Shown piece after piece: positions 8,360 to 55,360 of a DNA stretch of 64,000 nucleotides. A model generated the notes under the pieces. It was not told the DNA's origin. It was given only the letters and a program-made list of their open reading frames with translations, and ran no database searches. Location: assembly GCA_963782915.1 (NCBI GenBank), contig CAWALK010000019.1, forward strand, positions 96,001-160,000, in the 5' to 3' direction. Every line of letters starts with the position of its first letter. The first letter of the stretch is position 1. Position numbers and translations under genes: made by a program. This DNA is from an uncultured archaeon (lineage in GTDB: Archaea; Thermoproteota; Bathyarchaeia; Bathyarchaeales; Bathycorpusculaceae).

Positions 8360-11300
8360 ATGACTTCATTGCGGAACTTGGTGGATTCTTTGCCTGAAAG
8401 TGAAGAAATTAATGCTGCAAGCCTTGAAAACCAGCCGACAAAGTTAGAGCTTGACCTGTTTTTCGACTACTCTTTGGATTTGCTGGTTCTTGTCGGATTT
8501 GACAATTGCTTCAAGCAAGTTAGTCCCTCCTTCGAAAGAATTTTAGGTTGGACAAAAGAAGAAGTAATCTCAAAGTCATTTTATAAAATTTCTTCATCCA
8601 GACGACATTCAAAAAACCCAGACTGAAGTTAAAGCTCACGAAACAGGCAAGAATACAATTCTCTTCGAAAATAGATACCGCTGCAAAGACGGCTCATACA
8701 AATGGATATCATGGAACTCCCATCCGTTACCAGAAAAACAAATAATCATTGGCATAGGACGAGATATAACAGACCGTAAACAAGCTGAAGAAGCGTTTCG
8801 TCTTAGTGAGGAGCGTTTCTCTAAAGTATTTCGCTTAAGTCCGTTTGCAGTGATTATAACGCGTTACAGTGACGGTACCTATATTGATGTTAACGATACC
8901 TTCCTGAAAATGTTTGAGTTCTCCCGAAATGAAGTGATAGGTCATACAGCAAATGAAATCAAAATCTACGCTAACCCTAACGGAAGAGCGGCTTATTTGG
9001 CTGCTTTCAAGAACGGGCGTGTCACCGATTTTGAGGTAGATTTGAAAACAAAAAATGGTAAACCAATTAAAGCTTTGGGTTTTGCAGAGATTATTAACAT
9101 TAATGGTCAAGACCTAACTATTGGTACACTAGTTGATATTACTGAACGCAAGAAAGCTGAAGACGATTTAAAAGAACAGTCTTGGCCGTGAACATTTCCT
9201 TGCTCAGCTTGTTAGAGATGCTTCGGTTGCTGTCGGCGTGGGTTACCCTGATGGTCGATTAGGCTTAGTTAATGATGCCTTTGAAAAGCTTACAGGATAC
9301 AGCAAGGAAGAGTTGCAGAAAATTAGTTGGAACGTTATTTTGACGCCTTCTGAATATAGAGAGTATGAGAAAGCAAAGTTAGCTGAAGTAAACCAAACAA
9401 AAAAGCCAGTTCGTTATGAGAAAGAATACATACGTAAAGATGGCTCAAGGGTTCCAATAGAGCTAACGGTACATCCATTCCTTGATGAAGAAGGAAACGT
9501 AACCTCGTATTTCTCATTCATAATGGACATATCGGATCGCAAGAAAGCCGAAGAGAAACTGCGGCAAAGTGAGGAACGGTTCCGTTTTGCACTTAAGAAT
9601 GCGCCCGTGTCTGTGGCGGTGCAAGATTGTGAGCTTAGGTATATTTGGGCGTATAATCAAAAGACGGCAAATCCTGAACAAATTCTAGGCCGACGGGACA
9701 GCGAAATCTTCACCCCAGAAGAAGCTGCGCATTTAGACGTCGTTAAGCGTAGGGTTCTAAAAGAAGGCGTTGAATTACGTGAACAACAGTGGTTTAATAG
9801 GCCGTCTGGTCCAATCTTTTTGGACGTAACCTGGTCACCTCTCCATGATTCGAAAGATCAAATAATTGGTGTTTCGAGCGCAACTGTTGACCTAACAGAT
9901 ATGAAACGCGCGGAGATCGGGTTGCAAGAGAGTGAGCAGCGTTGGTCGACAACGCTGTCTAGTATTGGCGATGCAGTAATCGCAACAGACACAGCAGGCA
10001 AAACAATGTTCATGAACCGCGTGGCTGAAGAATTAACCGGTTGGACATTGAGCGAAAGTCTGCGGAAACCGGTGAAAGAGGTCTTCAATATCGTAAACGA
10101 GCAAACTCGTTTGGAGGTTGAAAACCCCATCGCTAAAGTTCTCAGGGATGGTATAGTTGTAGGCTTGGCTAACCATACCGTTTTGATACGAAAAGATGGG
10201 TCGGAAATTCCAATTGACGATAGCGGAGCTCCTATAAAAGATAAAGACGGCAAAACTACTGGGGTAGTGCTAATTTTTAGAGATATTACTGAGCGCAAGA
10301 AAGCAGAAGAAACCTTGGAAAGAGAGCGGTTTGAATTCAGAAGCATACTTGACTTTGCTCCAGTGATGATTGCTTACAAAAGCAAAGATGACCATTTTCT
10401 ACAAGTTAACTCGGCATTTGCCGATTTTGTAGGTTTGCCTAAAGAAAAAATAATTGGTAAGACGACCTTCGACTTAGTTAAGGAAAAAGATGTAGCCCAG
10501 CAAGGTCGAGACAGTGACCTGCAAGTTATGCGAACTGGGGTGTCTGTTCTAAACCAGATGATAAAATGGTCAGGTTTGTTTAGCCAAAAGCAGATTTGGG
10601 CGCTCTATTCAAAAATGCCTTTTCATGACTCTGACGGCAACGTCGTTGGAACAGTTAGTTATGTCTTAGATGTGGATGAAACTAAGAAAGCAGAAAGAAG
10701 CTCTAAGAGCGAGTGAGGAACGTTTAAGATTCCAGGTTGAAAACACTCCGGTCTAGCCGTGGTTGAATGGGACAATAATTTTGTGATTACACGTTGGGCT
10801 GGCGATGCAGAGAAAATGTTTGGTTGGACCGCCGCTGAGACTATTGGTAAGCCGATAATGGATTTGCACATGATTTACGAACCAGACATCCCTATAGTGG
10901 AACAGACCATGAAGAGGCTGACTAGCGGTGAGATTAAAGTTGTGTCTTCAAACCGCAACATAACCAAAGACGGTCGAGTAATCTATTGCACATGGTATAA
11001 TTCGGTGTTGCTTGACGATGAAAGCAAGAGGATGACCTCAGTGTTTTCTTTAATTGAGGACGAAACTGAAAAAGCTAAAGCGAAAAAAGAGCTTGAGAAA
11101 ATTAATATAAACTTGGAGAAGCTTATTGAAGAGCGAACCAGGAAACTGGAACTTAGTTCTTTGTATGCAAGAAATCTCATTGAGGCAAGTCTTGACCCTC
11201 TGGTAACAATTAGCGCTGAAGGGAAAATTACCGACGTTAACATAGCTACTGAACAGGTCACAGGAACTTCTAGAGAAGAATTGATTGGCAGTGACTTCTC

Positions 11301-12222
11301 GGATTACTTTACGGAACCTGAAAAAGCTAAGATTGGGTACAAGAGAGTTTTCTCTGAAGGATTTGTAACCGATTATCCTTTGGCGATCAAGCATAAGTCT
11401 GGAAAAGTCACGGAAGTGCATGTATAATGCTACTGTTTATAGAAATGCCGCCGGAGAAATACAGGGTGTTTTTGCAGCTGCAAGAGATATTACTGAGCGC
11501 AAGAAGGCTGAAGAACAAGCTCAGGAGGCTGCTAAGAAACTAAAAGATTCTGAACGTTTAGCGGCCATCGGTGCCACAGCGGGTATGGTTGGACATGATA
11601 TTCGCAATCCATTACAAGCTATAACGAGTGATGTTTACTTAGCGAAAACGGAATTAGCTTCGACTCTGGATAGTAAAGAGAAAGAGAATGCTTTAGAAAG
11701 CCTGACAGAGATCGAAAAGAACATTGATTACATTAACAAAATCGTGCAAGACCTGCAAGATTATGCCCGACCTCTTAGCCCAAAAACAGAAGAAATTGAC
11801 CTTAAACTGATAATTGCATGATCTATTGGCAAAGCAGAGGATGCCGGATAACATTGAACTGAGCCTTAAAATAGAAAATAAAGCTGAAAAAATCAATGCT
11901 GATTCCTATTACATAAATCGTATTATGTATAACCTAGTTACCAATGCCGTGCAGGCCATGCCAGATGGCGGCAAACTAACCATACATGCCCTCCGAGAAC
12001 AAAACAACTTGGTGATTTACTGTCAAAGACACTGGCGTAGGCATCCCTAAAGATATTCAAGGTAAGATGTTTACTCTGATGTTTACGACAAAAGCGAAGG
12101 GTCAGGGCTTTGGTTTGCCCGTTGTTAAGCGAATGATTGAGGCATTGGGTGGAATGATCTCATTTGAGAGCCAAGAGGGCAAAGGAACCACTTTCACAGT
12201 TAGTTTGCCTCTAAATAAATGA
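8360..12222 (+). CDS. Multi-PAS sensor histidine kinase, split by several frameshifts
   Basis: Consecutive PAS/PAC fragments (8243-8626, 8850-9191, 9238-10716, 10759-11427), H-box AGMVGHDIRNPLQ, N-box NLVTNAVQAM, G2 TTKAKGQGFGL in shifting frames. Confidence 0.85.
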
Positions 12223-12349
12223 GCGGTCACCCATTAGCCCTTATGCATTTGCCTATGTAGGCATAGTTCTTGAGTATTAAGTGATAATAGAATTTTGAAT
12301 TAAATAGTCTTTTATAATGCATTTGCGCTAAAATTTATTAGGGATTTTT

Positions 12350-12622
12350 TTGAAGCGCGAAGAAGCAATATTGGTTTTAAAGGAGCTTTTTGAAAAGTGC
12401 ACCAATTTGGATGGCCACTATTTAGAATTGTTACCGCCTAACGCCTCCACTAGAATGAGCGGTGGATATAAGATACAAATTAAGGCGACTCTTGATGAAG
12501 AAACAAGAAACTGCATGCAAGATGTTCTAATGAAAAATCGCCTTACCATAAAAATCGAAGAAGCAGATAGTTTCACAATTTACAAACCTCACAAAGAGTT
12601 TACCACTGCCCACCAAATGTAG
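12350..12622 (+). CDS. Small hypothetical protein (paralogue of 34079-34315)
   Basis: MKREEAILVLKELFEKC vs MNRNEAVTYLKELLNQC; both end in a similar I(Y/F)xP motif. Confidence 0.7.
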   Translation: MKREEAILVLKELFEKCTNLDGHYLELLPPNASTRMSGGYKIQIKATLDEETRNCMQDVLMKNRLTIKIEEADSFTIYKPHKEFTTAHQM

Positions 12623-12789
12623 AGTGTTGTTGAGCAAGGAAAAACCTTCATCATACGTTTGCTCTCCCCAAGAGCTAAACGGTAAATGGACCTACAAATA
12701 AAACCATCTCGCCCCGATTATTCTGACTAAGATCATCTTAATCGAAACAGCTATTAAATTCAAAATTGATTCTCAGTTAGGTTTGCCTT

Positions 12790-12864
12790 ATGATTTTTGA
12801 AGAAGAAGACGATGACTGCGGTTGCGATGACGATTGCGACTGCGAAGACTCTGAAGAAGAATAA
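12790..12864 (+). CDS. 24-aa acidic Cys-rich micropeptide MIFEEEDDDCGCDDDCDCEDSEEE
   Basis: Manual translation; followed by a T-tract terminator-like sequence. Confidence 0.5.
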   Translation: MIFEEEDDDCGCDDDCDCEDSEEE

Positions 12865-13081
12865 GCAAATCTCTAACCTTTTTTTGGTCCTGTTTTGTTT
12901 GCCCGATCACTGTATACAATGTAAATTTACGCCAGAAATTTTCCAGGAAATTTTGGGAAGTGCCGTGTGCTCAGGCCAAACGGTTCCACGGATTCAACAT
13001 TTCTGCCCAAGTGGAGCTTCAATGAACGGATTTTAGATATTTCTCACCACGGCGATGCGGCCGTTGCCGTATTCGGGCGTT

Positions 13082-13123
13082 AAGGTCTTCCATTAATTGG
13101 CTCCAGAAAGAGCTTAAAGTCAT
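13082..13123. repeat. Degenerate/partial copy of the cassette repeat
   Basis: AAGGTCTTC core followed by ATTGG...AAAGTCATC resembling the repeat arms. Confidence 0.45.
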
Positions 13124-13186
13124 CGCTGGGAAAGTTTCATTTACTTTGGGCTCATATACTACGACCTGTCCTGAGATGCATTAACG

Positions 13187-13420
13187 ATGAACATGTCTGA
13201 GGCAATGCGGTACAAAACAAAAATCCAAACCAATTGCGCCATAGCCGTTAAAATGCTTGACACTGCCGAAGACGGCATCATTTTGTACATTGAGCGAAAA
13301 AGTCTTGACTCCGCTTCATACAAACTCTTGGTCGATTTTGCCGCCGAAAACCAGTTAAATCTGCAACTGAGCAGTGGCAACTTCATCATTTCAACCCATG
13401 CCCTATCGGCTCAAGGGTGA
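13187..13420 (+). CDS. 77-aa hypothetical protein (paralogue of 55103-55360); cassette 1
   Basis: MNMSEAM..K..IQ..C.I..KM...SYKLL.D..AEN.LNLQL shared with 55103-55360. Confidence 0.8.
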   Translation: MNMSEAMRYKTKIQTNCAIAVKMLDTAEDGIILYIERKSLDSASYKLLVDFAAENQLNLQLSSGNFIISTHALSAQG

Positions 13421-13423
13421 ACC

Positions 13424-13561
13424 AAGGCCTTCAATAAATCGGGGGGTATAGAGGGAAGCTGGCAGGTCTTCGGTCTAAAGACTAATCATCAGAACCTATA
13501 AAAAATAAGACCCAATTTATGGCTTGACTTATCTTATGGCGTCCAATCGGCGGAAGACCTT
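13424..13561. repeat. Cassette repeat copy 1 (138 bp, inverted ends)
   Basis: AAGGCCTTC...GGGGTATAGAG...TCATCAGAACCTATAAAA...GAAGACCTT. Confidence 0.9.
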
Positions 13562-13703
13562 ACTGCGGCTGCTTCGATTCTTTTTGCTCTTTCTTTGAGC
13601 CGAAGTTAACGTTGATTACGATATTATTGTAAATGACAAGGCTTGCTTGAGCCGAAGGGCTAAGAAGTCTTGCCTCTTTTTCTTTTGTTTCCGATGTCGA
13701 CAT
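13560..13703 (-). CDS. 47-aa hypothetical protein MSTSETKEKEARLL...KQPQ; cassette 2
   Basis: Manual translation; TAA stop overlaps the end of repeat 1. Confidence 0.55.
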   Translation of the reverse strand: MSTSETKEKEARLLSPSAQASLVIYNNIVINVNFGSKKEQKESKQPQ

Positions 13704-13774
13704 AGCTATCTTGCTACTGGAACCGAATGAATGATAAAATGGTTTGCTGGTTACAGACTGAAATACATCGACGA

Positions 13775-13910
13775 AAGGCCTTCAATTTTCTGGAGGGGTA
13801 TAGAGGGAGAAAGGCTTGTCTGAGTTTTACCTTATCATCAGAACATATAAAATACAAAAGATAAAACGGAGGCTGACTTATCCTATGGGATCCAATCTTT
13901 AGAAGGCCTT
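13775..13910. repeat. Cassette repeat copy 2 (136 bp)
   Basis: AAGGCCTTC...GGGGTATAGAG...TCATCAGAACATATAAAA...GAAGGCCTT. Confidence 0.9.
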
Positions 13911-14063
13911 ATCGGATGCCCCGGTCCATTTACCGTTTAGCTCTTTGGTGGGCAAACGTATCATTGCGCCCGCTAATACTTACCGCAGTCAATATTCTGT
14001 GGTGCTATAACTATTAATACTCTAATTTCGAATTAATTGCATCACAACTTGGGTTTCTCGCAT

Positions 14064-15712
14064 ATGCCTACAAACAAAGCGCTAGTAGAAGAGATTGAAT
14101 CATCGATTGCACGGGACTTCACTTTATCCTACGCTGAATTAAAGAAGCTCCACTCACAGATGCTGGACCAGATCACGTCTACAGCAAGCCGCTCACCCGC
14201 ATACTCCAAAATAGAGCATATCACCGACCTCTCGCAGCTAAGCAAGCTTCCAATGACGTCTTTTGACCAGATTCAGGTGCTCTTCGACAAGCTCGGAACC
14301 GAGAAGGTGCTACTCAAGAAACCCGCAATATTCTGGTACACCTCAGGCTCCACCGGCAAACAAAAGAAAGTCTACTATGGCGAAGCAGACGAAGACATCA
14401 TCGCACAGGGCTTCATGCAACTACTATACCTAAGCGGCGTACGAGTCACAGACAGCGCCTTTGTCTTCACCTCAACCGGCGGCGACACCCTCTTTGGGCT
14501 TGTCCTCAAAAAATATGATTTACCCGGCCTAATTTCGACTCTTACCAACGAAATCGACGTCATCAAAGCGTTGCGAAACGCGTCAAAGTTGGAACGGATC
14601 GACGTCACCGTAGGCGTCACGTGGCTTTACCTCGTCATCAACAAGATAGCGCACCACCCCGAAGAGTTCGAGAAGATAGTGCAAAAGATGGTGAAGGACA
14701 AAGTCAAGATACCCGGTTTGCCATGGCTTATTCGCAAGTATCTGATGCGGGGCATCGACTACCAGAACCTCGCAAAAACCCTCTCTGAAACCAGATTGGG
14801 CTTCTCGCACGCTGAAGCACTCGCACCCTACATCCCCAAGATACATGAGGTATATCCGAAGATGGAGCTGCATGACGTGTTCGGCGCAACCGAGCAGTGG
14901 GTGCAGGCATACAGGTTTCAACCGAGCATAACTGGCTCAGCTTCTTCCTACGTTACTCCATCCCCGAACTGGCAGATCCAGAAGAAGTCCTTAAAGCTAA
15001 ACAGGACCCAACCTACATACCCAAAACCACTCCATGGTACGAATGGAAAAAGGGCATGCGCGGCGAACTCATCTTAACCCGCCCCGGCGAATGCTTGCCC
15101 TTGATCAGGTACCCGACTGGCGACATGATTGAAATCATGGACCCCGCCTACAAGTTCATAGTCAAACTCGAAACCACCACACTTGACATAACACTACCCG
15201 CGATTATGTCCCTTGGAAGATCAACAGACTCAGTGGATTACGACTCAGGAGACCAAAACGGCAACTTTTTCGGCTTCAAAGTCTACTCGCGGCAAATAAA
15301 CGACGCACTCTTCAAAATCCAGAACATTCGCTGGTGGGAACTCTACCACGTCCGCGGCAGCCCCGGCAGATTCATCTTCCTAGTAATCCCAGAAGCCCCA
15401 GTGCAGGATATGGTAGCCTTTAAAGCAGAAATACACGCATTGCTTACCAAAACCTTTGTGGAGTATTACGCAGTAGATACAGGAAGGCAATTCATACTCG
15501 ACGGCTCAGCGGCCAACGGAAACGGCGTAATTCACAAGGAACTCATCGAGGTCATAGTCACGCGCCCCGAGGCTTACAACGTCGTAGACCGCGAGGTAAA
15601 GCGCCGCCTAAAGGAAGGCCGAGCGATGGGGCGCCAGAAGCCCAAGCGGATCTTCAAGGTTGAGAACGAAGCCGAATTCAAGCGGCTTGTTGATGAGAAA
15701 CTGAAGGCATAG
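14064..15712 (+). CDS. GH3/phenylacetate-CoA-ligase-like adenylate-forming enzyme, one frameshift near 14905; cassette 3
   Basis: YTSGSTGKQK P-loop, DVFGATE, GELILT..GECLPLIRYPTGD across ORFs 14037-15077 and 14897-15712. Confidence 0.8.
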
Positions 15713-15756
15713 GACCTACCTACCTCAGCGGTGCCTCCCCTGCCTTATATAAAGAA

Positions 15757-15892
15757 AAGGCCTTCACGAAATTAGGGGGTATAGAGAGAAGAGAAGGCTT
15801 GACGGGTTTAAGCTAATCATCACAACATATAAAACAACAATAGAATAAATCAAACAAACTATCTCCATACCCATCCGTCGGCGGAAGACCTT
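15757..15892. repeat. Cassette repeat copy 3 (136 bp)
   Basis: AAGGCCTTC...GGGGTATAGAG...TCATCACAACATATAAAA...GGCGGAAGACCTT. Confidence 0.9.
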
Positions 15893-16059
15893 TACCAGTA
15901 TAAGTAAATATGCATTATCTGTAAAATCTTAGACTCGCCGTAGCCAGCTTTGACCAACCCACGAATCGTTTCCTTTATCAGCTGGACGAATTCGGAGTCT
16001 GCAGCAATATAGGCAGCCAAACCGACGAGCAATATGCCACCGACAATAATAGTCAGCAT
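15892..16059 (-). CDS. Small single-pass membrane protein (55 aa from ATG); cassette 4
   Basis: MLTIIVGGILLVGLAAYIA hydrophobic helix; TAA overlaps the end of repeat 3. Confidence 0.6.
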   Translation of the reverse strand: MLTIIVGGILLVGLAAYIAADSEFVQLIKETIRGLVKAGYGESKILQIMHIYLYW

Positions 16060-16156
16060 TCTCTCGAACCTAAGCCAAAAATGCAAGCTCAAACTAATAT
16101 GTATTACGATTCACTTCATTACCGTTAAAGCAGTTGTGATTTGAGCCGCAAATTTT

Positions 16157-16240
16157 GAAGGCCTTCGCCGATTTGCCCCCATAGAGAGAAATGCCAAGCT
16201 ATTCTTCACAACATTCAAGAATTTCTTCGGGATCCATCCA
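16157..16240. repeat. Degenerate shortened cassette repeat copy
   Basis: GAAGGCCTTC...ATAGAGAGAA...AAGCTATTCTTCACAACAT (copy 3: AAGCTAATCATCACAACAT)...GGGATCCA. Confidence 0.65.
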
Positions 16241-16413
16241 GCTTTAACTTGAACTATCAACGTTCATTGCGCTGCCGCTTGAAAGCCAAAGACAAAAAAG
16301 CGCATGGAGAACTTTCTTTGCTTAACGCTACGGAAAACTGCAGTAACGTTGCTGAATTCTGCAGCGTCGGACAAAGCCAAAAACAAGACTATACAATGAA
16401 TCAGGTGCAAGAT

Positions 16414-16459
16414 TGGAGCCTTCGGCGGGATTTGGACCCGCGACCATTACCTTACCAAG
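16414..16459 (-). pseudogene. 3' half of tRNA-Thr(GGT) with CCA; att-like relic
   Basis: Reverse complement CTTGGTAAGGTAATGGTCGCGGGTCCAAATCCCGCCGAAGGCTCCA: anticodon loop, T-arm, acceptor strand; no D-arm or 5' half. Confidence 0.8.
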
Positions 16460-16629
16460 AACCTGCCCTTGTAATATAAGTAGTAGTACAAAACATTTTT
16501 TCTGTGTTTTTCGACCTGCTGGTTGTTTGTTTGGGTTTGATTGAAAGAAGAAAGAAAAGGAATTGCGTTTCTTCTTCTACTAAAGAACTCCAACAGGTTA
16601 ATAGTCAACTATTGCAATAGGCATTAAGC

Positions 16630-16872
16630 TTACGTGCGCAGGTCAATACTATAGTAGGTTTTCAAGTATTTGCTGTTCAGGAGTGCTTCTAGTATTGTTT
16701 GGCACTCTTCTGGATAGAATGCAGCTACTACTGTGCAGAGGTCATCTTCACTTATCCGCTGATTATTCTTCAACCCTACCTCGCGAATTAGTCTGAGAGC
16801 AGCTTGATTTTTTGTTTCATTACTTGCTTTCTTAATTGACTCTGCTTTTTTCAGCTCAGGCACCCCATACAA
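16630..16872 (-). CDS. 80-aa hypothetical protein
   Basis: ORF only; possibly wHTH-like. Confidence 0.45.
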   Translation of the reverse strand: MYGVPELKKAESIKKASNETKNQAALRLIREVGLKNNQRISEDDLCTVVAAFYPEECQTILEALLNSKYLKTYYSIDLRT

Positions 16873-17065
16873 GTTGATCCTAATATTATTTTTAATACAG
16901 CCTTAAGGTATTGAATGAAGTAGAAAAAATTTGTACTTCTTCTACTGAGAAATTCTAATTGGTAGTAGTCGTCGATGTACTAGTACCGTCGACTACTTCT
17001 ATGCTAATACATTGTAGAGTTGAGAAGTTTTCAACTGCACATTTGACCTTTGTAGCCAAAGTGAC

Positions 17066-17952
17066 TTATGGAATGCCCCATAGCCTATTATCGTCATAAT
17101 ACAAATCCATAGACCAATATACAAGGCCCTTAAAGACAGCTAGTGGCGGTTCTTTTCGTAGTTTAGGTGCCATACGTGCCCATTCTTCTTCAGAGATGCG
17201 TGACTGATCTTTCCATCTTTGCAATCCCATTTCGAACAGGTCTTCAAGCGCTTTGCCTAAACACTTGTATCTACCATAAAGGCTGCTGCCGGTCGTATTA
17301 GAGATTCCTAAGAGCTTCCAGCCGAACATTAACAAAATCATGCGTTCCTCATGCTTCTCCGATTGAGACAACCCTGTATCAGCATACAAGTTTTAATTCA
17401 ATGTCGCCAAGCCGTTCATAATTCTGTAGATGCAGTGGAATCTACGCATCGCCAATATTCGGGGTCGAATTCATTATAATCGATTTTTAACTCTCGGGTT
17501 TTAGTGATAACCAGCTTGCCGGGCAGTTTGTAATATTTTAGCTCATCGATTTCTTCTTTTTTCTTGTAAAATTCAACTTCATTGAGTAGCCATTGCTGCT
17601 TATCGACGTCTAACTTGGTGAACAACTCCACGTTCTTGATTCTTTGCAGCTCTGCCTTTAGCTCAGCTCTTATTTTTTCTGGGATAAGGTAAAAAACGCT
17701 TTGGTGACCGAGGTTTTGCCTCTCAAGTAATCCTTCTGAGCGTAAGGCTGCTTTGGCTCTGGAGAAGGCAACATCGAAGCTTTCAAGGTCATAGTGTTTG
17801 GGAACATATCGTGCGTTTAAGGCTTTTTGGATTTCTTTGCTTTGTAGCCGGCAATTGGGTGCCTCTATAGTTGTCGTTAAGATGTCTAGCCGTAGAGCAT
17901 TATTTCTTGTTTCGGCGCTTAACTGCATAAGGCACACTGTAGTTACTAACAA
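17066..17952 (-). CDS. wHTH-containing protein, probably one gene broken by frameshifts (ORFs 17416-17952 and 17066-17389)
   Basis: FSRAKAALRSEGLLERQNLGHQSVFYLI wHTH; an intermediate frame (IPLHLQNYERLGDIELK) bridges the two ORFs. Confidence 0.55.
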
Positions 17953-18012
17953 GTTGTTAGCTATAATATGTCTTACTGTACTCCTTACTTACAGAATCAA
18001 CGGGTGAAGCGA

Positions 18013-18156
18013 ATGGATGAAAAAGTCACAGTACGCATCCCTGATGGCCAAAGAGAAAAAATTGAGCGAATAATCAAACGGGAATACCCTAAAATGAAAA
18101 CCATCAGCGACGTCGTCAGACACGCACTAAGTCAATTCCTCGAAAAAGAGGCCTGA
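18013..18156 (+). CDS. Ribbon-helix-helix (CopG/Arc/MetJ) protein
   Basis: KVTVRIP...IERII...TISDVVRHALSQFL; GGTGA SD upstream. Confidence 0.8.
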   Translation: MDEKVTVRIPDGQREKIERIIKREYPKMKTISDVVRHALSQFLEKEA

Positions 18157-18158
18157 TC

Positions 18159-18575
18159 TTGGCAAGCCGCAGCAGCATCTTAGAAACAATCGGCACCCAA
18201 CAGAACCCTCTCCAACAATTCATTTACGTCCGCTATCAAGATCACGTTTTGTATAATCGAAGTTCTGCTCTATTGATGCAGCCGCAGGTTAGAGAAGCTG
18301 TAGGCTGGCTAGTCTATGAAGCCGAGCAGTACATTATACTTTCTTGGGATAGAGATGCTGCTCCGCCGACGCTACATGGTGGCGACCCGAAAGCATCCGG
18401 GTTGGTACTTCTAAAAACGGACATTTTGGACCTGCAGAAGCTAAAAGCTCACTACTTACAACGGAATTTTGAGTTTAATTTAAATCGCAAACCAGCTAAA
18501 CAAGAGAATGAGTCTGCGTTCCGACGACCATCGGAGCGAAAAACTCACTCCTCAAAAGGAGAAAAAACAAAATGA
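18159..18575 (+). CDS. Hypothetical protein coupled to the integrase
   Basis: ORF between the RHH gene and the integrase with ATGA overlap. Confidence 0.65.
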   Translation: MASRSSILETIGTQQNPLQQFIYVRYQDHVLYNRSSALLMQPQVREAVGWLVYEAEQYIILSWDRDAAPPTLHGGDPKASGLVLLKTDILDLQKLKAHYLQRNFEFNLNRKPAKQENESAFRRPSERKTHSSKGEKTK

Positions 18576-20006
18576 TAGAAAAGACTACCATAGCCCCCGC
18601 TATAACCCGCAACCGTCAACTTTCCCTTGAAGAACTAAAAAGCCTCAATCTCCCCATGACATTCCAAGGCGACCAAGTCGTAATCAGCACAAGCTTAACC
18701 GGCTGGAAACTCAAAAAACCCGTAATCATAGAACTAAAAAACATCTTAGATGCCAAAGAAAAAGGCCTCGTCGACTACATCATCAGATCCTGCCTAAACG
18801 ACAGCCCAAGCGTAATTGCCTTCATATTCGAAAACCAGAGCATGCTAAAACTCGCCCGCCACTTCCTACGCCACCTCTCAGGCTCCTACAGAAGCTGCTT
18901 AACCTACTCTGTTAACGTCAAACGATACGCAATTTGGCTTGGCCATAAGCCCGACTTAATTATCCAAGACGTCAAACCAGTCGGCGCAATCCCCGACCCA
19001 ATAAAAGTGCAGAGCCACTGCGGATTCTTAAACGATTATCTTGCTGAGCTCCAGGACAACGACCTCAAACCAGCCGCCGTCAACAACTGCATAAAAGCCG
19101 TCAAAACCTTCTACCACGTAAACGGCATAGACGTCAAACTCTCTGAGCGCCTAAGCCGAAAAGTCGCTTACAAAGACCGAGCACCAAAGCCCGAAGAACT
19201 CACAAAAATGCTTAGATAAATCCGCTGTCCGAGAAGCCTTTATCATAGCCGCTTTAGCCACAGGCTGGATTCCGGGAAGGAACATTCTGTAAACTAAAAT
19301 ACCGACACGTCAAAGAAGACCTAGAAGCCAGACAGAATACCTATACACGTCCACGTAGAAGCAGAAATCACCAAAGGAAAATACCATGACTACGACACCT
19401 TCATCAACACTGAAGCAAGTTCAATCTACTGAAAATGTACATTGCTGACAGAAGACGAGGCAGCATATACACTCCGCCCGAAGAAATCACCGACGACTCA
19501 CCTCTAATCCGAAGCGACCACAATGCACACAAAATATTGGGCATTAGCGAAAAAACCACTGCGTAAAATCGTGCACACAATCGCCGTTGAAGCTGACGTC
19601 TCAAAGAAACTGCCCGACAGCTGGATGTACAGTGTTAGAACCCATAGCCTACGAAAATACTTCAGAACCCAAATGAGCGCCTCAAAAATCGATAGTGAAA
19701 TCATCAAATATTTTATGGGCAAAACCATCGACACCTACGAAGACGTCCAGAGCTTAGGTATTGAAACGCTAAGAAACCTCTACACATCTGCAGGACTAGC
19801 CATTAGACCAAAGACTCAGGTCAATAGGATTGAGCAGTTTAAAGAAATCTTACGTGCCATGGGGAGAGAACCCAGAAGAAGTCCTATCAAAAGATGCTTT
19901 GATGCGGGGAAACATTACTGAGCTCCCAGAACTATACCAGAATCATCAGTTATCTGTTCTGGCTGAGCAGCTTAAGCAGCTGATTAGACGGGAGGTCAGG
20001 GTTTAG
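18572..20006 (+). CDS. Tyrosine recombinase/integrase, several frameshifts
   Basis: SAM-like domain (YLAELQ..LKPAAVNNCIKAVKTFY), catalytic R (FREGT), K (ITKGK), HSLRKYF, FMGK..DTY in successive frames. Confidence 0.88.
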
Positions 20007-20042
20007 TGAACGAAAAAACTGGTAGTTTCTTCGTGTTAGTAA

Positions 20043-20119
20043 TGGCGCCGCCGAAAGGACTCGAACCTTTGACCTACTGATTAACAGTCAGTTGCACTAC
20101 CGGGCTGTGCAACGGCGGC
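20043..20119 (-). tRNA. tRNA-Asn (GTT), CCA encoded
   Basis: Reverse complement GCCGCCGTTGCACAGCCCGGTAGTGCAACTGACTGTTAATCAGTAGGTCAAAGGTTCGAGTCCTTTCGGCGGCGCCA folds as a cloverleaf. Confidence 0.96.
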
Positions 20120-55102: not shown

Positions 55103-55360
55103 TTAAAATTGGCGCTCAACCCCAAAAGACTTTGCAGACGGCAGGCCCATGTTAGAAATGACGAACCTGCCCATTTCCAGCTGTAGATTCAGGTTATTTT
55201 CGGCGGTATAATCCGCTAGAAGCTTGTATGAACCCTGCTCGAGCGCGCTTTTTTCGACAGTTAAGACAAGGCCAACTTCGGGCATGTCAAACATTTTTGT
55301 TTCTATTCCGCAGCAGTCTTGTATTTGGCGCTTTATTTTCATGGCTTCGGACATGTTCAT
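55103..55360 (-). CDS. 85-aa hypothetical protein (paralogue of 13187-13420)
   Basis: Sequence similarity to the cassette 1 gene. Confidence 0.8.
   Translation of the reverse strand: MNMSEAMKIKRQIQDCCGIETKMFDMPEVGLVLTVEKSALEQGSYKLLADYTAENNLNLQLEMGRFVISNMGLPSAKSFGVERQF

Follow-up and report, generated by a model that had tools for sequence, protein, structure and literature searches.

Bacterial integrons and their relatives in archaea are known for cassette arrays by which single genes are captured and reshuffled; they rely on the integrase IntI and attC sites, as outlined in the sections of PMC9668308 that treat them. A looser form of such arrays is found around the promoter early stem-loop motifs (PeSLs) of T4-type phages, and a further point of comparison is offered by the archaeal elements that integrate by a suicidal integrase of the SSV1 type. 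Here we analysed a 64,000-nucleotide stretch of DNA from an uncultured archaeon of the family Bathycorpusculaceae (contig CAWALK010000019.1, positions 96,001 to 160,000; hereafter the window), in which an array of repeats alternating with short open reading frames (ORFs) occupies positions 13082 to 16218. A preliminary description made from the window alone had taken this array for an integron-like gene-capture or shuffling system. The array architecture and the shuffling of cassettes withstood comparison with related genomes, but the likeness to integrons failed with respect to the type of site, the place of crossover, the orientation of the genes and the recombinase. The three full repeats are the surviving linkers of a decayed cassette array, which belongs to a small integrative element common in the genus, and the array in the window is a relic, not a working system. 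The literature searched, supplementary files not covered, held no description of such arrays. In the following, relatives' genomes are labelled G (G000 being the genome of the window itself), contigs C, and fetched loci and metagenome contigs L.

The window carries three co-oriented plus-strand copies of the repeat, which we call linkers, at the places and with the lengths reported before, together with traces at both ends of the array:

13082..13100, plus strand: left-end motif of 19 nt, the only remainder of the linker that once opened the array (from reading the sequence; window positions 12927-13090 align to G023:C5, where the alignment ends at a left half copy)
13424..13561, plus strand: linker copy 1, full length (138 bp), core at 13485-13503
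13775..13910, plus strand: linker copy 2, full length (136 bp), core at 13834-13852
15757..15892, plus strand: linker copy 3, full length (136 bp), core at 15816-15834
16158..16218, plus strand: left half linker (left arm and decayed core), the array's last site (positions 1-74 of the hidden Markov model, HMM; the alignment to the consensus stops past the core)

The inverted termini, AAGGCCTTC on the left and GAAGRCCTT on the right, had been noted correctly: within the window they match these three copies alone, with no match expected from 100 shuffles of the window. The internal blocks are likewise present in all three, GGGGTATAGAG at 13443, 13795 and 15776 and ATCATCA(G/C)AAC(A/C)TATAAAA at 13485, 13834 and 15816. 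Two minus-strand ORF stops indeed overlap repeat ends (13560-13562 and 15892-15894), and the stop of the 77-aa ORF lies 3 nt ahead of copy 1. Two decayed copies had also been proposed. The one at 16157 is a real remnant, but only a left half copy (16158-16218, model positions 1-74); the one at 13082 agrees in position with the half copy in G023:C5, but amounts to the 19-nt left-end motif and escapes detection by the HMM. Target-site duplications are absent, as previously stated, since none of 84 full copies from all loci is flanked by a repeat of k ≥ 5, and flanking repeats of k = 3-4 occur at the shuffled level. A scan of positions 12000-18000 against Rfam (E ≤ 1) returned nothing.

Profile and covariance searches of the genome and its relatives uncovered the family of arrayed, co-oriented repeats flanking short variable segments that the preliminary description had anticipated. 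In the window's own assembly (3.28 Mb, 25 contigs), an HMM of the three copies (E ≤ 10) found just these three full copies, all within 2.5 kb, and an HMM of 39 copies added one item genome-wide, the left half copy at 16158-16218 (E 0.12; 0.008 among the loci). BLAST with two copies against 61 relatives matched 17 genomes, with hits in 15 of 36 genomes of the same genus and 1 of 24 elsewhere. With a sequence-only covariance model of 38 copies, the repeat was detected in 68 of 120 genomes of the genus, with matches per genome ranging up to at least 28. Outside the genus the repeat is almost absent: in a sample of 151 genomes of the order, three other genera of the same family gave one weak match each (E 8e-5 to 9e-4), and the 115 sampled genomes of 11 other families gave none. 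The regions that we fetched contain 148 copies, 127 of them full length. Neighbouring copies point in the same direction in 79 of 80 pairs; the sole reversed linker, L036:5482-5612 (G101:C9), lies 251 nt past a forward copy and ~640 nt from tRNA-Thr. The segments between linkers measure 34-7043 bp (median 675, with a cluster at ~390) and hold one or two genes. In G136:C4, a match to the core alone (L031:9426-9454, model positions 47-75, E 0.003) was seen 1.45 kb ahead of the array, which could be a bare target site or chance. A search of viral contigs gave one exact match to a 20-nt stretch of the core, again core alone with no linker, and a search of phage and plasmid records with two linkers gave no match. 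The samples that yielded these sequences are labelled peat, wetland and soil.

An alignment of 97 full copies from many species revealed the anatomy of the linker. It is ~134 bp long, with the palindromic 8-bp sequence AAGGCCTT conserved at each end, arms of ~30 nt that are imperfect inverted copies of each other, and a middle rich in A+T, within which the 22 bp of the core hardly vary (CTTATCATCAGAACATATAAAA). Conservation is 80-99% in the core and in the 8-bp termini; outside the core, copies are only ~63-70% identical, and copies within an array diverge by 25-35%. Sites with the sequence AAGGCCTT number 25 in the window's own genome, against 48 expected from base composition. The block GGGGTATAGAG of the left arm reads CCCCCATAGAG in some copies. 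Moreover, the left arm exists in two forms at positions ~17-24, in which the 8-mer TGGGGGTA is swapped for its exact reverse complement TACCCCCA; the two forms are mixed within arrays and unrelated to the flanks (for example L009:5202-5333 versus L009:8381-8514).

The inverted arms described earlier thus exist, but at ~30 rather than 40 nt and with no compensatory changes. Covariation in the terminal stem was not found (75.5% of cells pair, compared with 74.9% in shuffles), RNAalifold returned no pairs and no consensus structure for the alignment, and folding of the three window copies as single-stranded DNA was no better than that of shuffles (z +0.49, -0.33 and -0.19). Some copies elsewhere do fold as a long hairpin, such as the first copy in L033 (z -5.1). 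Given the lack of covariation and of a consensus fold, the arms seem to be motifs conserved as double-stranded DNA, not a hairpin under selection. Readings of the linker as an attC-like hairpin or a small RNA were dropped on the negative results from RNAalifold, covariation and folding. The statement that the repeats are not attC sites accordingly stood: they have no RYYYAAC/GTTRRRY ends, no fold and no covariation.

Between the linkers, genes have been shuffled in a combinatorial fashion. Comparing full copies from different loci, we found 99 repeat pairs that share only the upstream 300 nt, 44 that share only the downstream 300 nt and 5 that share both. This one-sided sharing of flanks means that the same cassette sits beside different neighbours, and indeed the same cassette, at 84-97% identity, was found between different neighbours in different species. 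Pfam scanning of 122 in-array ORFs returned 87 families, the commonest being HTH_45 (6), DUF5752 (5), nitroreductase (4), DUF4177 (3) and ArsR-type HTH_5 (3); Alba, SWIM, histidine-kinase domains and hydrolases occurred twice each. Replication or virion families were not among the 25 commonest Pfam families of these ORFs.

Relative to the linker, genes run in both directions: 64 of the 123 in-array ORFs of at least 65 aa follow the direction of the linker and 59 oppose it. The direction is nevertheless a property of the cassette. All four nitroreductase cassettes follow the linker, and DUF5752 cassettes oppose it in four of four cases, their stop codon overlapping the linker end. When homologous segments sharing at least 120 nt were compared, 83 of 90 pairs had the same orientation relative to the repeats; the seven exceptions are partial-segment homologies (208-464 nt, 69-82% identity), all with segments that carry HTH_45 genes. 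The earlier proposal that a cassette can insert in either orientation is contradicted by this agreement and by the single orientation of each cassette family. Among the 64 genes that follow the linker, 22 start 63-126 nt past it, and TATA-like boxes can be recognized by eye within those stretches. Cassettes thus seem to carry their own promoters, so that the linker would not be needed as a cassette promoter. In sum, cassettes are self-contained units of one or two genes, with an orientation that is fixed for each cassette family.

To locate the crossover, we compared linker pairs in which a flank keeps an identity of 84% or more as far as the linker edge; the windows of positions were set once the data had been seen. 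In 25 pairs with homologous upstream flanks, the linkers showed excess identity at positions 1-55 (+0.06 to +0.20), falling to zero from ~60, and in 9 pairs with homologous downstream flanks the excess (+0.13 to +0.27) extended over ~75-125. This profile indicates that the left arm tends to travel with the preceding cassette and the right arm with the following one, with the switch at the core. Truncated linkers break in the same region. Five 5'-truncated copies begin at ~50-66 (L019, L020, L027 twice, L031), four 3'-truncated copies end at ~69-78 (L020, L040, L042 and the window), and half copies of both kinds retain the core. In G002, one DUF5752 cassette is enclosed by two half copies, one right and one left, and meets a conserved chromosomal flank at a 4-nt overlap, CTTA. 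Exchange had been assigned to the AAGGCCTT ends before; since the flank linkage switches at the central 22-bp core and half copies keep that core, this assignment must be given up. In G016, a duplicated cassette (L009:6186-7202 versus L012:4715-5732, 97.8% identical) has one border near a linker and the other inside a longer segment, and no simple event can be read from it.

Several arrays carry an ORF of ~295-315 aa upstream of the first linker, which is intact in G085 (P0001) and G084 (P0002). P0001 matched the archaeal phage integrase family PF16795 (32.1 bits, cut-off 27) and the integrase PHROG 5127 (E 7.9e-10); no other Pfam family, PF00589 included, matched at E ≤ 1. Sequence and profile searches of the integrase against PDB and a search of phage records found no match, and a structure model was poor (mean pLDDT 59, pTM 0.40) and adds nothing. 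The gene is joined to the array and to the chromosome at its two ends: its stop codon coincides with linker positions 11-13, and at its 5' end the reading frame runs through 48 nt that duplicate the 3' end of tRNA-Thr(GGT). In L009 and L033, an attachment (att) site and the C-terminal part of the gene, Int(C), stand on the left, followed by the array and then by the N-terminal part, Int(N), with tRNA-Thr/tRNA-Leu on the right; L036 and L039 are bordered alike, with an integrase that is distant or partial. By domain, position of the att site and split gene, the array elements are suicidal-integrase elements. Their intact layout is tRNA-Thr att, body of the SSV-type integrase, [linker - cassette]n, integrase start, att/tRNA-Thr. 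Arrays also end at other tRNA genes, namely tRNA-Cys (L008) and tRNA-His (L015).

Of 18 metagenome contigs that carry the integrase, 11 have a linker after the 3' end of its gene, as do L002, L005, L009, L026, L033, L038 and L039. In four contigs (L052, L053, L057, L065) the integrase gene is continuous, with linkers or the conserved upstream region ahead of it, the state expected of a free or tandem element. An integrase homologue (E ≤ 1e-10) was found in 60 of the 120 genomes of the genus; repeat and homologue co-occur in 41, 27 have only the repeat, 19 only the homologue and 33 neither one. The repeat is present in every one of the 19 genomes with a best integrase match of at least 64% identity. 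Co-occurrence of the repeats with one recombinase clade had been put forward as a test; an SSV-type clade does adjoin the first linker, and many arrays lack the integrase. The partner proposed at the time, a tyrosine recombinase 2.3 kb away (18572-19921), turned out to be another integrase, disrupted and next to tRNA-Asn. Relatives of it are present in the repeat-free genome G071, and it is not the partner of the array.

How might cassettes be exchanged? That they are swapped at linkers by a dedicated site-specific reaction is the reading that we favour, at somewhat less than even odds. If two co-oriented linkers recombined about the core, a circle made of a cassette and one hybrid linker would be set free, and the reverse reaction would insert the circle at another linker. 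Rare insertion at a core-like secondary site would leave half linkers. Such a reaction would act on double-stranded DNA, and its likeliest catalyst would be the integrase whose gene heads the intact arrays and which could serve in trans those arrays that have lost it. The circular intermediate, the site-specific nature of the reaction and the enzyme are what we infer from the arrangement of linkers and flanks. Co-orientation would follow automatically if one-linker circles insert at resident linkers, whatever the enzyme. In its full form the proposal goes further, and we advance it more tentatively: a suicidal SSV-type integrase may recombine double-stranded 134-bp linkers at the 22-bp core, and thereby excise, capture and reorder self-expressing cassettes, with the whole array mobile via tRNA-Thr and spread thus occurring at two levels.

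The strongest competitor assumes the same architecture with exchange driven by homology, as in the PeSLs of T4-type phages. Here the linker would be a regulatory or insulating module, with a core resembling a TFB recognition element and TATA box (BRE/TATA) and operator-like palindromes, kept between cargo genes, and shuffling would be a by-product of general recombination or of an integrase of relaxed specificity. We consider this a genuine contender, if rather less than probable. Phage PeSLs offer a direct parallel: in the portions of PMC2839356 that describe them, they show conservation over ~100 bp, border on variable ORFs, recombine at points that differ and give rise to mini-circles, and this precedent implies that conserved promoter-bearing motifs can do all this via general recombination. 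The start of the integrase gene, which lies 45-90 nt past the last linker in L009, L057 and L065, fits a regulatory linker as well. Contigs from two RNA libraries contain repeat-like pieces, a weak hint in view of possible DNA carry-over.

Other observations count against a site-specific reaction more generally, and some of them point to the homology-driven alternative. The core, CAGAAC-ATATAAAA, fits in plus direction the pattern of (A/G)GAA(A/C)C and an A+T-rich box that precedes the genome's own tRNA genes (39 upstream regions, compared by eye); it thus resembles a tRNA promoter, and its conservation could be regulatory. The end points of 12 pairwise junctions vary, with four outside the linker, two at ~17-20 and six at ~35-58, which a single fixed crossover does not explain unaided. 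Linkage of the left arm to the upstream cassette is weak (+0.06 to +0.20 over baseline), and the pairs used for flank sharing and crossover are non-independent, several stemming from related elements. Arrays persist in genomes that have no member of the integrase clade (27 of the 68 repeat-positive genomes at E ≤ 1e-10), and many fetched arrays have no integrase within ~4 kb. Similarity between att site and linker was not significant (best local score 8.5, shuffled mean 8.05, P 0.34; P 0.06 for linker copy 2 taken alone). No excision circle or empty site was found, none of 20 whole contigs having terminal overlaps. No public read run contains this array or as much as half of the stretch, and four runs, whose cover is confined to the ligase gene and the att site of the window, show no array joints. 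For the cassette in L020, a clean empty site was not found among five compared genomes, all of which differ mutually where the conserved flank ends.

What favours a site-specific reaction over homologous exchange is, first, the polarity of the linkers, which ignores the direction of the genes (64 plus, 59 minus), and the promoters that the cassettes appear to bring themselves. Second, at ~63-70% identity outside the core the copies make a poor substrate for homologous recombination, being too diverged for efficient exchange. Third, half copies that stop at the core edges beside unrelated DNA are not a product of homologous exchange. A conserved stem-loop or terminator, as a module of the PeSL kind would suggest, was not found in the linkers. 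Finally, one integrase clade is welded to the first linker.

It is improbable, in comparison, that the arrays are mere remains, left by tandem duplication with later divergence or by tandem integrations of long ago, with repeats that are now functionless and apparent shuffling that reflects only ancient rearrangements. The state of the window array (half copy, frameshifted gene, lost integrase body) and the divergence of 25-35% between copies within arrays would suit such an origin. Against it stand the conservation of core and 8-bp termini at 80-99% among 97 full copies from many species, the full length of 127 of 148 copies, and the occurrence of the same cassette (84-97%) between different neighbours across species.

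Clustered miniature inverted-repeat transposable elements (MITEs) inserted into intergenic spaces, an alternative already raised in the preliminary description, would account for a length of ~134 bp, imperfect terminal inverted repeats, an A+T-rich middle and the long hairpin of some copies, the first one in L033 (z -5.1) included. However, target-site duplications are missing (0 of 84 at k ≥ 5), 79 of 80 neighbours are co-oriented, the three full copies of the window's own genome all fall within 2.5 kb, and the arms travel with neighbouring cassettes. This reading is close to refutation, and we regard it as very unlikely. Least credible of all are invertible promoter segments, or a shufflon whose gene segments flip between inverted AAGGCCTT arms, since, although inverted arms bracket every inter-linker segment, the core is promoter-like and one linker in 80 neighbour pairs is reversed (L036), 79 of the 80 pairs are co-oriented across independent assemblies and homologous segments keep their orientation in 83 of 90 cases, the 7 exceptions being partial and linked to HTH_45.

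Apart from its linkers, the array of the window and its surroundings comprise the following features:

13187..13420, plus strand: small conserved ORF of 77 aa, a cassette gene of unassigned function (63%-identical homologue right after a linker in L010; no Pfam family)
13560..13703, minus strand: ORF of 47 aa, probably not a gene (no homologue, no Pfam match)
13923..13964, minus strand: inverted copy of 12650-12692, the presumed relic 3' end of a former minus-strand kinase cassette (I1, 26 nt, 96%; I7, 18 nt, 83%)
13974..15743, plus strand: adenylate-forming-ligase-like gene, frameshifted at ~14907 and lodged between linkers 2 and 3 (by sequence comparison)
15892..16092, minus strand: hydrophobic ORF of 66 aa with a TTG start, a cassette gene whose stop overlaps the end of linker 3 (61%-identical homologue in L013; no Pfam family)
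16219..16395, plus strand: conserved stretch ahead of the integrase start (identity of 89% with G023:C1 and of 75% with G122:C6, beside tRNA-Thr)
16396..16459, plus strand: Int(N), the first 21 codons of an SSV-type integrase, with the 48-nt att site at 16412-16459 (from tRNA identity and tblastn)

The 77-aa ORF has a paralogue (52% identical) 42 kb away on the minus strand (55136-55360), with no linker detected nearby. The 47-aa ORF had been listed as one of the genes between the repeats; with no homologue in its own genome or any fetched locus, it is probably no gene. The membrane protein of 55 aa named in the same list exists as an ORF and its stop overlaps the linker, but it measures 66 aa from the TTG start. 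A 43-nt inverted duplication (12650-12692 and 13923-13964) brackets the first part of the array. The region 12636-12701 sits downstream of histidine-kinase genes in G122 and G023, and minus-strand kinase genes come after linkers in L012 and L026, which would be consistent with 13923-13964 being the stump of an earlier kinase cassette.

The gene between linkers 2 and 3 had been called a GH3-like ligase. It is frameshifted: compared with an open frame of 558 aa in G102, one base is missing at ~14907, and contigs of two DNA runs likewise carry one extra base at 14907 relative to the window. In Pfam, the ORF shows a short AMP-binding motif only, which is sub-threshold. Copies that are 94-97% identical over ~1755 nt occur in four other species of the genus (G102, G081, G030 and G078), where they have four unrelated flanks and no linker nearby; the copy in G030 is placed between a tRNA gene and a tRNA-like fragment. 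In the window, the borders of the segment (13974 and 15726-15743) do not coincide with linkers. The near-identical copies with unrelated flanks indicate that this gene moves by a route of its own, independent of linkers.

At the right end of the array, the region 16219-16395 is 74% identical to metagenome contig L052, where it continues directly into an intact integrase gene. In the window, tblastn with P0001 matched residues 14-34 to Int(N), which has the same start at the right junction of L009, and the 48-nt att site is identical to the 3' end of tRNA-Thr(GGT) (G000:C20:10986-11062). The body of the integrase is missing, and unrelated DNA follows after 16459. The genome's own tRNA-Thr(GGT) locus (G000:C20:10986-13371, L044) shows a 2.3-kb segment downstream of the tRNA gene; this segment contains an integrase-like fragment of 41 aa, is free of linkers and terminates in a partial att copy of 30 nt. 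Beyond the att copy in the window, the 3.6 kb up to tRNA-Asn (16460-20119; tRNA-Asn at 20043-20119) contain a ribbon-helix-helix-like ORF (17968-18156) and, beside tRNA-Asn, a second integrase broken into ORFs 18572-19219 and 19523-19921. This stretch has the appearance of a further integrated element in decay, or else of a recombinant of two elements. On the left, a multi-PAS histidine kinase (8850-12222) appears as abutting ORFs (8850-9191, 9238-10716, 10759-11427, 11420-11821, 11814-12050 and 12067-12222), which suggests frameshifts or assembly errors, and the 90-aa ORF at 12350-12622 has at least nine more family members in the genome (27-78% identity).

The archaeal genus of the host is uncultured and abundant, with samples from peat, wetland and soil, and arrays occur in over half of its sampled species genomes (68 of 120). 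If the site-specific reaction holds true, it would represent an independent invention of the integron principle and a new activity for suicidal integrases, and could furnish a tool for modular DNA assembly in archaea. Even if exchange is driven by homology, the linkers explain how accessory genes such as those for nitroreductases, Alba, small regulators and DUF5752 proteins are traded within the genus, and the 22-bp core provides a simple marker for this variable gene pool in metagenomes.

With the sedentary chromosomal integrons, as far as the relevant sections of PMC9668308 go, the arrays share co-oriented, imperfectly palindromic sites of ~130 bp that separate short, functionally diverse cassettes, the recurrence of the same cassettes from array to array, the gene of a tyrosine recombinase bordering each complete array on one side, and many arrays that have no integrase, comparable to clusters of attC sites lacking integron integrases (CALINs). 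They differ in the integrase, which is of the PF16795 type with no Pfam match to PF00589 and adjoins the array with the 3' end of its gene. IntI, for comparison, is a tyrosine recombinase of family PF00589 with an extra domain specific to IntI, and integron cassettes, for the most part promoterless and co-oriented, enter at attI next to intI. In contrast to attC sites, the linkers end in AAGGCCTT instead of RYYYAAC/GTTRRRY, have no conserved single-strand fold or covariation, and exchange their flanks at the conserved centre, not at one end. In addition, genes run in both directions, seemingly from their own promoters, and the whole array is itself integrative at tRNA-Thr. The VCRs of Vibrio are the comparison case for species-specific attC repeats.

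Like the PeSLs, in the relevant portions of PMC2839356, the linkers are conserved intergenic motifs of ~100 bp or more that flank variable small genes in a plastic region, with mosaic junctions inside the motif at somewhat varied points and promoter-like content with G-run/C-run elements; a circle of a gene and one hybrid motif was proposed there, too. Unlike PeSLs, they belong to an archaeal host and an integrative element rather than a lytic phage, their orientation is independent of the genes, they have no conserved terminator hairpin, the cassettes have apparent promoters of their own, and a dedicated integrase is adjacent.

The elements SSV1, pTN3 and pT26-2 correspond in the PF16795 domain and in an att site inside the integrase gene (PMC8371274 and PMC7253208, in the passages on these integrases), and integration into a tRNA gene likewise splits the integrase into Int(N) and Int(C) (PMC8371274, in the same passages). 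Linker-separated cassette cargo goes unmentioned in those portions of PMC8371274 and PMC7253208, in which the word 'cassette' occurs 0 times. The arrays described here differ also in that no replication or virion family is among their 25 commonest cassette Pfam families, and in that they come from peat, wetland and soil samples as opposed to hyperthermophile sources.

Cargo modules standing side by side are familiar from two further systems. In the tycheposons of Prochlorococcus, such modules are reportedly bounded by tRNA-derived att repeats at tRNA-linked hotspots and shared between genomes, and in the pdif modules of Acinetobacter plasmids they are bounded by 28-bp Xer sites and likewise shared between genomes. 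Here, by contrast, a 134-bp linker that bears no relation to the att site forms the boundary. What is new in the linker arrays is an integron-type architecture that arose from another recombinase family and another type of site.

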